DNA of 64,000 nt from Escherichia coli (GTDB taxonomy: Bacteria; Pseudomonadota; Gammaproteobacteria; Enterobacterales; Enterobacteriaceae): the NCBI RefSeq assembly GCF_044324875.1, contig NZ_CP172185.1. One strand, 5' to 3'. Positions 22,703 to 31,082 of the stretch are shown one piece after another; within the stretch, counting starts at the first letter, position 1; each line of letters starts with the position of its first letter. The position numbers and the translations under genes are program-made. The notes beneath the pieces are model-generated. The model saw only the letters and a program-made list of their open reading frames with translations, had not been told where the DNA came from and did not search any database.

Positions 22703-22957
22703 ATCCCAAGCCAATGTAACAATAATTTAGATAAATAGCGGCAGCTAACATCCCGGCGTCTATGCTTTAAACAAAGGAATGTTACTGTCGTTTTTCTTTT
22801 TAAAACAAAGAATAACAACGAGTTAACCTACTAAGTTTAATCTATTTTTTGTTGGATTTATCCTTGTTTCTGACAGCATTTGGTAAGACAATTGGCGTTT
22901 GAATTTAAGATAGCTTTGCGATAGCTAGCGGGGCGGGGTACATCTTTGGCATTTTGC

Positions 22958-22996
22958 TAGTGCACTGGTAGCTGTTAAGCCAGGGGCGGTAGCGTG
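22958..22996 (+). promoter_or_regulatory. JUMPstart element with ops (RfaH-dependent antitermination site) ahead of the O-antigen cluster
   Basis: agtgcactggtagctgttaagccaggggcggtagcgtg closely matches the 39-bp JUMPstart consensus, including the ops core GGCGGTAGCGTG at 22985-22996. Confidence 0.75.
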
Positions 22997-23095
22997 GTAA
23001 GATTGTGTTTATATGATGCGTTCTCAAAATAAGAAATAATAATCCTGACTATTTTTATACTATTGATAATATCTGAAATAAACTTAAGAGCAAAC

Positions 23096-24100
23096 ATGAA
23101 AGTAATTGTAAATAATTTTTTTGATGGTATTTTGAAAAGAGGAATACCGATCTATACTTCTGAACTTGTGCAAAAGTTAAGAGACAATAATGTTCAGGTT
23201 ATTTATGTTGCATGTCCAAAAGCATTCCATAAGCTGCCTTCATGGTTTCTGAATGTTCTTTTTATAATAGTAGAGCAGCTTTTAATACCAATTATGGGTA
23301 TATTTTATAGAACTAAGTATAATATATATCCCTATAATAGTAGTTCCATCATTGACTTGTTATTAGGTAAGGCAATTGTTATAATTCATGACTTCATTAG
23401 TCTTAAGAAAAATAAACGAAATCTTGCTGCCATTTATGTGAAAGTCTGTATTTATTTTTCATCTTTTTTAGCAAAGAAAGTAATATTTATTTCTCAAAGC
23501 ACTCAGCGAGTATCTAAGAGAATATCGCTATTTAAGTGTATAGAATCTATCCTGCTCCCAAATCCATTTTTCTCATTTGAGAAAATTGCTAATGTTACCG
23601 AAATAAAAGATCTTGGATATTTACTTCTAGTTTCAGGTTTAGGGGATAATAAGGATCTAGGCACAGCTCTGGACTATTATTTTTCAATCCCAAGGGAAGA
23701 AAGAATACCATTAAAAATATTAGGTTGTGGGAATGGTATTAGCAAGGTTAACGACTTAATTGATGGGCGGGATACAGATAAAGAAATTGAAATTATTGGT
23801 TTTGTTTCTTTAGAGGAAGTCGTCAAACTATATTGTAATTCTAAAATTGTTTGGGCTCATTCGCTTGCCGAGGGGTATGGAAGGACTTTAGCTGAAGCAA
23901 AACTCACATGCAAAAATGTTATATGCACACGGATCTCTGCTTTCCGCGAACAAAAGGATTCGAATATTTTCTTTTATACTTACTATTCTGAGTATTATGA
24001 AGTCTATTCATACTTGGTAGATAATTCACCCAGTGTCGAAAGGAAAGCTCTGCATGAACATATTTTATTTGAAAATGAATTGAGAAAGATTTATGAGTAA
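23096..24100 (+). CDS. O-antigen glycosyltransferase (GT4-like, probable mannosyltransferase)
   Basis: ORF 23063..24100; start taken at ATG 23096 (MKVIVNNFF...). AT-rich with Lys/Ile/Asn-rich codon usage; C-terminal EGYGRTLAEAKLTCKNVICT resembles the GT4 E-x7-E region. Confidence 0.7.
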   Translation: MKVIVNNFFDGILKRGIPIYTSELVQKLRDNNVQVIYVACPKAFHKLPSWFLNVLFIIVEQLLIPIMGIFYRTKYNIYPYNSSSIIDLLLGKAIVIIHDFISLKKNKRNLAAIYVKVCIYFSSFLAKKVIFISQSTQRVSKRISLFKCIESILLPNPFFSFEKIANVTEIKDLGYLLLVSGLGDNKDLGTALDYYFSIPREERIPLKILGCGNGISKVNDLIDGRDTDKEIEIIGFVSLEEVVKLYCNSKIVWAHSLAEGYGRTLAEAKLTCKNVICTRISAFREQKDSNIFFYTYYSEYYEVYSYLVDNSPSVERKALHEHILFENELRKIYE

Positions 24101-28321: not shown

Positions 28322-29653
28322 ATGCATAAGCAATATTATTCATTATTGTGCAATAAAATACAGTTTAAACATCTGGCTATATATTTTTCTGTATTTCTTT
28401 CACTATCCTCATGTTTCTTGTGGGGAGGGGCGGATACATTTGTATCGCAAGTGTATATTGATATTTTAGCCACTATATCTACAGCGCTATTAGTTGTTTT
28501 GATGTTCTATTATTATATTAATAGAGTTCGCTATTTATCACTAACCTTACTTTTTGCATTCGTTTTTTCTTTGATTATTGGTTTGCCATCGATTTATCTT
28601 TACTATTTTAAAAACGCAAATCATGGGTTTGAAATAATTTGTATCTGGGGGATGTTGATCAATTCCATCCTTTACTTGCAAACAACAGAGACTGTCATAA
28701 AAGAAGAAAAAAGATATTTAACTAGTTTATTTTATATTTTGTTTTCTATTGTTGCACTGTGTCAATTATACAAAATATTAATTTATCTTATGTTTATATT
28801 GAATTCAGGAGAAGGGCATTTAGCAATTTATACTGAAAGCGAAGAATTGCTATCCCAAGTTCCATTTTTTATTCGTGCTATTAGTGGTTTTGCAGTTGTA
28901 ATGTCATTGTCCACTTTTTATTTTAAAACACCGACCTACATTAAAGTTATTGCATTTGTTTTACTTGCATCTGATTTAGCTATTGGAATACGTAATAAGT
29001 TTTTCTTTTCAGTGATTTGTATTTTTATACTATATATGTACTCTAATGAGTATAGAGTAAGAAATTTATTTAAGCAACTCTCAAAACCAATATTTCTCAT
29101 CGCCGGTTTTTTATGCTTCTCGATGGTATCGTATTTCCGTGAAGGGTACCAAATCGATTTTATGATTTATATTGGCATTGTTTTAGATTCGCTATCCTCT
29201 ACTCTTGGGGGGATGCAGAATTTGTTTGATATGCAATCATCAGGATGGGATCAACTTCATCCCGCTGTGGTATTCACACAAGTATTACCGCTAAGCGGTC
29301 TTGGTTTTCTTGATGATCAACAAATCGCAAAAGATTTTTCAATAATTGTTTTAGGTGATGTATCCTCTGGTATTGCGTTGTCATCTTCAGGATTGTTAGA
29401 GTCATCGTTGCTGAGTCTAAACTTGGGAGTGATTATTTATTTACTGTATTTATCAGGGGTGATGCTTTTTATTAAATGGGGACTAAATAATCAACGGATA
29501 ATAATAAACTTTGTTGCCATCTCCATGATATCTGGATTTTTTTATGCTGTTCGTGGTGAACTGATTTTGCCATTGGCTTTTCTTCTAAAATCATTGCCGA
29601 TTGTTCTTATATCTCCATTACTTGTTAAAAATAAAATTTATCATGGTCAGTAA
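28322..29653 (+). CDS. wzy: O-antigen polymerase Wzy (polytopic membrane protein)
   Basis: 443-aa very hydrophobic, low-GC ORF with many predicted TM segments; location in O-antigen cluster. Assignment is by context. Confidence 0.65.
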   Translation: MHKQYYSLLCNKIQFKHLAIYFSVFLSLSSCFLWGGADTFVSQVYIDILATISTALLVVLMFYYYINRVRYLSLTLLFAFVFSLIIGLPSIYLYYFKNANHGFEIICIWGMLINSILYLQTTETVIKEEKRYLTSLFYILFSIVALCQLYKILIYLMFILNSGEGHLAIYTESEELLSQVPFFIRAISGFAVVMSLSTFYFKTPTYIKVIAFVLLASDLAIGIRNKFFFSVICIFILYMYSNEYRVRNLFKQLSKPIFLIAGFLCFSMVSYFREGYQIDFMIYIGIVLDSLSSTLGGMQNLFDMQSSGWDQLHPAVVFTQVLPLSGLGFLDDQQIAKDFSIIVLGDVSSGIALSSSGLLESSLLSLNLGVIIYLLYLSGVMLFIKWGLNNQRIIINFVAISMISGFFYAVRGELILPLAFLLKSLPIVLISPLLVKNKIYHGQ

Positions 29654-29694
29654 GTGGTTTATTTTTCGACCAGGATCTCACCAGTAGGCATGAC

Positions 29695-30930
29695 ATGATC
29701 AAAGAAATTTTCTCCGATGGCATTTTTTCGCTATTTAATAAAATATGTTACTTCGGTTTTAAAACACTTGCAATAATTCTGATTACTCGTTCCTTAGGAG
29801 AAGATGTAGGCGGAGAGTTCATTTTTTTAGTTGGTTTTCTCGAAGTCCTTCGGGTGGTTACTGATTTTGGTGTGGATCTGTTTGTTATAAAAAAATATAA
29901 TGATTCTACAGATAAAATAAAACTATTAAATGTAACGTTTGCACAAAAAATTCTTTCTGGAGTAATTGTTTTACTACTGTTTTGTTTGTATTCTTTTGTT
30001 CAGGGTTATCAATATAATGTCTATATTCCTATTGTGTTAGCCTTACCTGTTGCTTTATTTTTTAATTTCTCAAATAGCTATTTTCAATCTCTCAATTCCA
30101 ATAAATCTCTCACGTTTCCGATCGCAATTGCATCTATTGCAACGTGTACGATCTTCGCTATTCAGTATTTTTTAAACGTTAAATTTAACGCATGGGATTA
30201 CCTGTGTGTTGAACTATTATTCGTATCGCTGGTTACACTAAAACTATTCGTTAGTGTCAAGTTTAGGTTTATTAGAACGTCAGCTTTTGATGTGCTAATG
30301 TCAATTCTTTCTTTATATAAATATACATTAAGTATAGGTCTTACAGCTGTTGTTGTAATTATTTATAGCCGTATAGATAATTTTTATCTCAAGACATTTG
30401 CCCCAGGGGATCTTGCAGCATATGGCCAGATATTTAGGATGGTTGATCCACTGGTTATGGTTTCTTCTGTATTTTCTACAGTTGCCTATGCAAGATTTTG
30501 CCGAATTAACTTACAAGAAAAAAATGCTTTTACTAAGGTGTTTCAGTTCCTGTTATGTATTGTGGCATATGGCGTGCTGAGTTCATTAGTTTATTTCTTT
30601 ATAATAAAATACCTGGGTCATTTTGTATTGATTTCTAATGTTAATAATGATTTCTTGATAATGATGTTCTTGATTGTTGCATGTGTGAAATGTATCAATG
30701 GTGGTACAACTGCAATAATTCAGTCACAGGGGTTTTATAAAGTGGGTTTGTATGTTTCGTATGTTTGCATTTTGACATCGATACCAACTATGTATTTCTT
30801 AATAATGAAGTACGGTGTTAAAGGTGCTGCTATGACGATTCTGCTTGTAGAGTGTATTAGTTTCATATTACTTCTCTGCAGCTTTTTTATGATAAAAAAG
30901 ATGCGTCCTAAAAAAACATTCGAAATGTAA
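29695..30930 (+). CDS. wzx: O-antigen flippase Wzx
   Basis: 411-aa polytopic membrane ORF with the N-terminal pattern typical of polysaccharide-biosynthesis flippases; last gene before gnd. Confidence 0.7.
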   Translation: MIKEIFSDGIFSLFNKICYFGFKTLAIILITRSLGEDVGGEFIFLVGFLEVLRVVTDFGVDLFVIKKYNDSTDKIKLLNVTFAQKILSGVIVLLLFCLYSFVQGYQYNVYIPIVLALPVALFFNFSNSYFQSLNSNKSLTFPIAIASIATCTIFAIQYFLNVKFNAWDYLCVELLFVSLVTLKLFVSVKFRFIRTSAFDVLMSILSLYKYTLSIGLTAVVVIIYSRIDNFYLKTFAPGDLAAYGQIFRMVDPLVMVSSVFSTVAYARFCRINLQEKNAFTKVFQFLLCIVAYGVLSSLVYFFIIKYLGHFVLISNVNNDFLIMMFLIVACVKCINGGTTAIIQSQGFYKVGLYVSYVCILTSIPTMYFLIMKYGVKGAAMTILLVECISFILLLCSFFMIKKMRPKKTFEM

Positions 30931-31082
30931 TCAATGAGTCCTCTTTGAATAGAATTAGTTTGTTCTATTTATGAACACTTAGCTTGAGTAAGTTCTAACA
31001 TAGATTACTAATTGTTTGATACTATCTGCTTTACAAGCATAACCGCGTATGTCGCGGTGACCACACCTGACAGGAGTATGTA

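Follow-up and report, generated by a model that had tools for sequence, protein, structure and literature searches.

Described relatives of the cluster

The O-antigen gene clusters of Escherichia coli serogroups O17, O44, O73, O77 and O106 are more than 99% identical, and the five serogroups have the backbone →6)-α-D-Man-(1→2)-α-D-Man-(1→2)-β-D-Man-(1→3)-α-D-GlcNAc-(1→ in common (Man, mannose; GlcNAc, N-acetylglucosamine), in which two Man residues are transferred by one glycosyltransferase (GT) (PMC7685785). O77 is linear, and O17, O44, O73 and O106 bear glucose (Glc) side branches (PMC7685785), namely one Glc in O17 and O44 and two in O73 and O106 (PMC10304059). gtr genes outside the cluster have been proposed to add the Glc, which was confirmed for O44, where they lie on a prophage (PMC7685785). 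Iguchi et al. found the glycosyltransferases to be identical in O17, O44, O73 and O77 (PMC4379981), and DebRoy et al. described the four-sugar backbone as common to Salmonella O:6,14 (PMC4732683), a relationship that is also reported elsewhere (PMC7685785). Here we analyze a stretch of 64,000 nt from E. coli (contig NZ_CP172185.1 of RefSeq assembly GCF_044324875.1), referred to as the window, and the O-antigen gene cluster located between galF and gnd in it, which very probably belongs to this group.

Other systems resemble the group in part. Nearly the same backbone, α-Man-(1→2)-α-Man-(1→2)-β-Man-(1→3)-HexNAc (HexNAc, N-acetylhexosamine), has been published for E. coli O176 (PMC8244359), which is also listed with a GT that transfers two Man (PMC7685785). 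Compared by published structure, O176 has N-acetylgalactosamine (GalNAc) where the O77 group has GlcNAc, and its units are polymerized through a 1→4 rather than a 1→6 linkage. A functional analog of the enzyme that acts twice is WbdB of the E. coli O8/O9a polymannose systems, where one GT4 mannosyltransferase attaches two mannoses in a row; WbdB forms α-1,3 linkages in an ABC-transporter-dependent pathway. Shigella flexneri also has one backbone cluster, from which serotypes are diversified by phage-borne glucosylation genes of the gtrA/gtrB/gtrC type. It differs from the present case in its rhamnose backbone and in that the window is devoid of gtr genes.

Identity of the cluster

The block between galF (21809–22702, + strand; TIGR01105, 685.7 bits; RefSeq annotation) and gnd (31083–32489, + strand; TIGR00873, 769.8 bits) spans exactly 22703–31082, or 8380 bp. 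It contains six intact open reading frames (ORFs), all on the + strand, which encode two glycosyltransferases (GT1 and GT2) followed by ManC, ManB, Wzy and Wzx. The same six genes are found in the same order and at the same locus in the E. coli O17/O44/O73/O77/O106 cluster (Wang et al. 2007; Iguchi et al. 2015). Compared with the O17 serotyping reference strain K12a, and likewise with others, a single difference was seen in 8380 bp. In K12a, the difference affects position 27892 within manB and leaves the protein unchanged (Ser392, AGT vs AGC). The wzy and wzx genes carry the RefSeq names "O17/O44/O73/O77/O106 family" polymerase and flippase, respectively. Of 5426 complete E. coli genomes searched by megablast, 92 contain the cluster when matches covering at least 80% of the 8380 bp are counted. 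Taken together, we conclude with a probability of roughly 0.93 that this is the E. coli O17/O44/O73/O77/O106 O-antigen gene cluster, also named Gp9, "O77-group" or "O77g". The cluster is already well described and ordinary, and a single BLAST of wzx or wzy suffices for a specialist to recognize it.

A first-pass annotation of the same DNA, made from its letters, had held that sequence alone does not reveal the exact serogroup, and had proposed a comparison of wzx and wzy with typing databases as a check. The RefSeq names of these two genes point to the five serogroups. The group can thus be named from sequence, and the statement holds only for the exact member, which depends on genes elsewhere. 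Because that member is set by glucosylation (gtr) genes outside the cluster, it cannot be read from this window. Indeed, no gtr genes were seen within the 64 kb, where all ORFs of meaningful size are accounted for as colanic-acid, O-antigen, his, yee, sbcB, dacD and pdu genes. For typing, this means that genoserotyping based on wzx and wzy cannot split the five serogroups. The O77g includes the sequence type (ST) 69 O17/O77:H18 lineage of extraintestinal pathogenic E. coli as well as the lineage of the 2025 French outbreak of hemolytic uremic syndrome due to Shiga toxin-producing E. coli (PMC13188871).

Composition, expression signals and genes

The genes of the cluster have a GC content of 0.315–0.400, with 0.26–0.32 at third codon positions (GC3). 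For comparison, galF, gnd and the colanic-acid genes cpsB and cpsG have a GC content of 0.51–0.55 and a GC3 of 0.54–0.64. A JUMPstart element was detected downstream of galF at 22958–22996 on the + strand (Rfam RF01707, 59.2 bits vs a cut-off of 35), and the ops 12-mer GGCGGTAGCGTG is located within it at 22985–22996. The ops element would be the loading site of RfaH for operon antitermination. With its position between galF and gnd, the presence of both wzx and wzy, and the JUMPstart/ops element, the cluster has the features of a Wzx/Wzy-dependent O-antigen cluster of Enterobacteriaceae. In accordance with this, family searches revealed no ABC transporter (wzm/wzt) among the six ORFs, all of which are accounted for. 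The cluster encodes no initiating phosphotransferase, and wecA lies outside the 64-kb window.

Scans for further signals gave 37 promoter sites vs 37.2 expected from shuffled sequences and 6 terminators vs 4.5 expected, that is, no enrichment of either, and we propose no promoter. A repeat search within the cluster returned only short matches at chance level, with the exception of the spacer hairpin described below. The 64-kb window contains no tRNA genes and thus no tRNA-linked island.

The product of manC (25297–26712, + strand) is a protein of 471 aa that matches TIGR01479 with 754.6 bits (cut-off 372.95) and contains the Pfam domains NTP_transferase and MannoseP_isomer. It is predicted to be a bifunctional mannose-1-phosphate guanylyltransferase/mannose-6-phosphate isomerase and is 60% identical to CpsB from the same window. 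The adjacent manB (26717–28138, + strand; 473 aa) encodes all four PGM_PMM domains (I–IV) and the motifs TGSHIP, with the catalytic Ser, and DGDGDR, which forms the metal loop. On the CpsG model NF011943 it scored only 22 bits, far under the cut-off of 801, and it is thus not of the CpsG type. Identity is 24% to the CpsG of the window and 60% to the ManB of O179. Judged by these comparisons, ManB is a phosphomannomutase from a non-CpsG branch of the α-D-phosphohexomutases.

The 183-bp spacer between manB and wzy (28139–28321) folds with −42.3 kcal/mol (z −4.3). It contains a stable hairpin at 28163–28190 on the + strand, an inverted repeat with a GC-rich stem of 10 bp, and none of the blastn matches to the cluster's Salmonella counterpart extends over the spacer. 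The spacer could be an internal attenuator or a site of processing, or else the scar left by a recombination that joined a GT-manCB module to wzy-wzx.

The wzy gene (28322–29653, + strand) encodes a protein of 443 aa with about nine hydrophobic segments, and its DNA is identical to that of RefSeq-named genes. The only family match was to TIGR04370, with 30.4 bits and under the cut-off of that model. Wzy is predicted to be the O-antigen polymerase of the O17/O44/O73/O77/O106 family and would form the α-GlcNAc-(1→6)-Man bond between units, a linkage taken from the published structure (PMC7685785). The wzx gene (29695–30930, + strand; 411 aa, about ten hydrophobic segments) matches PF01943 with 29.9 bits, slightly above the cut-off of 28.2, and its product is the predicted O-unit flippase of the same family. 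Outside the cluster, the gene of the chain-length regulator that acts together with Wzy, wzzB, was found intact at 34050–35027 on the + strand (NF012015, 608 bits).

Much of this had been anticipated, and the observation itself is confirmed throughout. The first-pass annotation described a low-GC cassette between galF and gnd, which agrees with the GC content of 0.32–0.40 vs about 0.52 in the flanks, and a JUMPstart/ops element, which is the RF01707 match. It named manC, wzy and wzx, now supported by TIGR01479, by RefSeq names via identical DNA and by PF01943, respectively. It called manB "PGM-type", as borne out by the four PGM_PMM domains and the distance to CpsG. The Wzx/Wzy pathway and a mannose-containing unit with its own GDP-mannose supply, as it proposed, are in line with the gene families and the published backbone, and the WecA-dependent start fits a backbone that begins with GlcNAc.

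Two glycosyltransferases for three mannoses

As GDP-α-Man must yield one β and two α linkages, one of the two enzymes has to invert and the other to retain the configuration. GT1 (23096–24100, + strand; start codon according to RefSeq WP_000864846.1) is a GT-B glycosyltransferase of 334 aa that matches PF00534 (E = 1.2e-10). In its C-terminal Rossmann domain it carries an EX7E motif, E259-x7-E267, in the context 'AEGYGRTLAEA', which aligns with the motif of PDB 7mi0 and with that of WbaZ-1 (2f9f). Across 21 homologs, no variation was seen at E259, G260, G262, R263 and E267. As judged from its amino acid sequence, GT1 possesses the motif by which CAZy family GT4 is recognized.

GT2 (24093–25295, + strand) is a GT-B glycosyltransferase of 400 aa that matches PF13692 (E = 5e-19) and resembles TIGR03087 (209 bits, under the cut-off). 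Here Ala310 replaces the first Glu of the motif, giving A-x7-E, and the EX7E signature is thus absent. The cluster had been described as encoding two GT4 enzymes. This applies to GT1 with its EX7E; GT2 has the GT-B fold and lacks the first Glu. The residues G309, A310, G311, Q313, N314, K315 and E318 are invariant in five homologs. An AlphaFold2 model of GT2 (mean predicted local distance difference test score 85.7) shows a GT-B fold, and Foldseek matched it to GT4 and GT5 structures with E-values down to 8e-17; fold alone cannot decide the stereochemistry of GT2. Sequence searches of the PDB with GT1 and GT2 singly and with a GT2 profile gave insignificant matches only.

In the O6 and O179 clusters and in two untyped E. 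coli clusters, the gene that directly precedes manC encodes a GT2 homolog with 51–56% identity, those of O6 and O179 being 53–56% identical. The family is large, with approximately 1600 database relatives at E < 1e-20, and relatives in Vibrio, Shewanella and Burkholderia are still 45–50% identical. Database names of the homologs of both enzymes are all generic ("glycosyltransferase"), and RefSeq labels GT2 as "family 4" and GT1 only as "glycosyltransferase". A GT2 homolog of 50% identity is abundant in Salmonella, one source being serovar Mbandaka. Its O:6,7 antigen also contains β-Man-(1→3)-GlcNAc.

The O6 unit is printed with two β-Man, one α-GalNAc and one β-Glc, and with no α-Man (PMC8244359). 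The O6 cluster encodes four transferases: one of the GT2 family, one EX7E enzyme of 343 aa ('YEGYELVTIEA') and a pair of GT-B enzymes that lack EX7E. The GT2 homolog is a member of this pair. β-Man-(1→3)-HexNAc is the sole mannose linkage that O6 and the O77 group have in common. This linkage bookkeeping suggests that the products of GT2 are β, i.e., that GT2 could be inverting. In gene order, both O6 and O179 have the GT2 homolog immediately upstream of manC, as here, and O179 also shares the non-CpsG manB (60% identity). They differ from the present cluster in their wzx, wzy and other transferases and in that GT1 has no close homolog there, and the O6 manB is of the CpsG type.

From the EX7E of GT1, the A-x7-E of GT2 and the comparison of linkages with O6 and O:6,7, we consider it probable that GT2 is the β-1,3-mannosyltransferase acting on GlcNAc-PP-undecaprenol (GlcNAc-PP-Und) and that GT1 is a retaining α-1,2-mannosyltransferase that acts twice, adding Man II and Man III. 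A more tentative proposal, for which we see somewhat less than an even chance, is that GT2 and its large family represent an unrecognized clade of inverting β-mannosyltransferases with a GT4-like GT-B fold, in which G-A-G-x-Q-N-K-x-x-E replaces EX7E. Within such a clade, the family might add the first mannose to HexNAc-PP-undecaprenol, an extension that we hold with the same reserve. The database label "glycosyltransferase family 4" on GT2 relatives implies a retaining mechanism.

Proposed pathway

The roles of WecA, WaaL, RfaH and Gtr in O-antigen synthesis are established, and the genes described above would fit into the pathway as follows. ManB and ManC would produce GDP-mannose, and WecA, encoded outside the cluster, would provide GlcNAc-PP-Und. 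To this, GT2 would attach the first mannose in β-1,3 linkage, after which GT1 would attach two successive α-1,2 mannoses. The resulting tetrasaccharide would be flipped by Wzx and polymerized by Wzy via the α-GlcNAc-(1→6)-Man bond, with WzzB controlling the length, and WaaL would ligate the chain to lipid A-core. RfaH, recruited at ops, would suppress termination across the 8-kb AT-rich operon. Periplasmic glucosylation by Gtr, if present, would set the final serogroup.

Alternative explanations

The simplest reading of a cluster with just two glycosyltransferase genes follows the default assumption of one enzyme per linkage, and the first-pass annotation had taken this course, predicting a WecA-initiated trisaccharide GlcNAc-Man-Man in which both transferases act once. 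It had also named what would speak against it, namely a matching serogroup that needs more transferases than are encoded, and this is what was found, with three Man and two enzymes. In the matching serogroups, the backbone is a tetrasaccharide of GlcNAc and three Man (PMC7685785, PMC4732683), the published structures of all five serogroups agree on this composition, and one GT transfers two Man according to a review (PMC7685785). A trisaccharide is hence hardly tenable. Counts of glycosyltransferase genes under-predict the size of the repeat unit, as here, where a single enzyme is used twice and genes outside the cluster provide the side branches. Given a tetrasaccharide, the two enzymes might have the reverse roles, with GT1 making β-Man-(1→3)-GlcNAc and GT2 being the α-1,2-mannosyltransferase that acts twice. 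The structures closest to the GT2 model are retaining GT4 enzymes, including mycobacterial mannosyltransferases and PimA, the RefSeq label "family 4" is on GT2 and not on GT1, and GT1 has only few homologs, which are found together with Man-rich modules. Nevertheless, we regard this exchange of roles as unlikely, since it is GT1 that has the EX7E of retaining GT4 enzymes in invariant form, GT2 lacks its first Glu, and O6, where GT2 homologs are present, has a unit entirely free of α-mannose.

The assignment of GT2 to the β-1,3 and of GT1 to the α-1,2 linkages, and the naming of the group, also have points standing against them. The solved folds nearest to the GT2 model all belong to retaining GT4 and GT5 enzymes, which does not favor an inverting mechanism. 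The reducing-end HexNAc of O6, printed as GalNAc, may instead be GlcNAc, which makes the acceptor in the comparison uncertain. The linkage assignment for GT1 and GT2 is our own and is drawn from sequence. Wzy has no above-threshold family match, and its identity relies on the named RefSeq genes and on topology. Finally, both the identity of the group and its expression in this strain are read from genes. The cluster could, for instance, be present in a rough or semi-rough strain that does not express the O antigen, owing to defects in wecA, waaL or rfaH or to polar effects. Nothing specific points to this apart from an IS621-family element just downstream of wzzB. That element lies in the wzzB-hisIE spacer, outside any gene, and all six ORFs as well as wzzB are intact, with one synonymous change relative to the serotyping reference strain. 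We therefore consider non-expression very improbable.

Recombination and flanking regions

Differences from K12a were counted along the window in bins of 1 kb. From approximately 20.3 to 36.4 kb, a region covering the 3′ end of wcaM, galF, the cluster, gnd, ugd and wzzB, only 5 differences were seen in about 16 kb. A second region, 13–17 kb, showed one difference, and the remaining window 10–45 differences per kb. The contrast between 5 differences in 16 kb and 10–45 per kb outside argues that the cassette moved together with its conserved neighbors by homologous recombination, with breakpoints in the colanic-acid genes and at the wzzB-hisIE spacer. wzzB lies within the exchanged block. Horizontal exchange had been suspected from base composition, and the near-identical block of about 16 kb within a window that is otherwise mostly 1–4% divergent from the O17 reference is in good agreement with this. 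While the cluster itself differs from that of O17 K12a only by the synonymous change, the flanks differ as a 1–4% divergent mosaic with an insertion of the IS621 family after wzzB. The best identity to any complete E. coli genome was 98.9% for 1–20.3 kb, 97.6% for 31083–56000 and 99.1% for 54–64 kb. The value of at most 97.6% for the his-sbcB flank had raised the idea of an Escherichia host other than E. coli; this was discarded, since the remaining flanks match E. coli at 98.9–99.1%, and the flanks are taken to be E. coli but mosaic.

The inserted element in the wzzB-hisIE spacer (35138–36411) is an IS621-like insertion sequence of the IS110 family, and its site coincides exactly with the right end of the near-identical block defined by comparison with the O17 reference. 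Its transposase ORF (35244–36224, minus strand) encodes a DEDD protein of 326 aa with PF01548 and PF02371. IS621 belongs to a family of bridge-RNA-guided recombinases. K12a lacks the element, whereas the platypus isolate A2 has it in this very position, in a frameshifted form.

Related clusters in other genomes

The gene order GT1-GT2-manC-manB-wzy-wzx-gnd recurs in two contigs of Salmonella enterica (L008 and L009). From GT1 to Wzx, the protein identities are 77 (partial), 78, 83, 76, 71 and 74%, and DNA identity is about 71–75%. These contigs would fit the reported relative S. enterica O:6,14 (group H). A metagenome-derived contig (L014) contains a third version of the six-gene layout, with 66% identity in GT1. 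In Citrobacter sedlakii (L010) and another contig (L013), a module of GT1-like, GT2-like and manC genes was found within larger clusters.

A module of GT2-like, manC and non-CpsG manB genes is located directly upstream of gnd in the E. coli O-antigen clusters of O179 (L003), strain 2EC1 (L005) and isolate SC476 (L007). In two of these three clusters, wzx and wzy have no RefSeq serogroup name, and these two may be untyped O-antigen clusters. Two database proteins, P0036 and P0040, are 94–100% identical to GT2 over approximately 70% of its length and carry unrelated Pfam domains, of type III secretion system EscU/YscU in one and PGM_PMM_IV in the other. Chimeric gene calls or misassembly of public E. 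coli genomes probably account for both.

Other features of the window

In the colanic-acid region, an Rfam algC RNA motif (13007–13056, + strand; 78 bits) lies immediately upstream of cpsG. The wzxC-wcaK spacer (17388–17671) contains two minus-strand matches (17445–17516 and 17542–17612) to naRNA4 (CssrE), which is derived from repetitive extragenic palindromic elements. Based on overlapping BLAST alignments, this spacer appears to be longer than that of K12a by one repeat unit of about 96 bp.

The distal part of a pdu (propanediol-utilization) microcompartment operon occupies 55582–64000 on the minus strand, downstream of a yeeA-like FUSC gene, and includes pduT, a gene for an Fe-S flavoprotein, pduQ, pduP, pduO, pduM and a phosphate propanoyltransferase gene. 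Only 636 of the 5426 complete E. coli genomes cover at least 80% of 54000–64000. Between plaP and sbcB lies a yeeE-like sulfur-transport gene (ORF 48190–49248; Pfam Sulf_transp), which in strain A2 is named tsuA/yeeE by RefSeq and is followed by tsuB/yeeD. The region 48190–49500 (about 1.5 kb) is absent from K12a. Matches to the small RNA STnc240 (46432–46506, + strand; 68 bits) and to the His operon leader (43570–43693, minus strand; 132 bits) were also detected, and the yefM-yoeB toxin-antitoxin pair, with the his leader on one side and yeeZ on the other, has the location seen in other E. coli.

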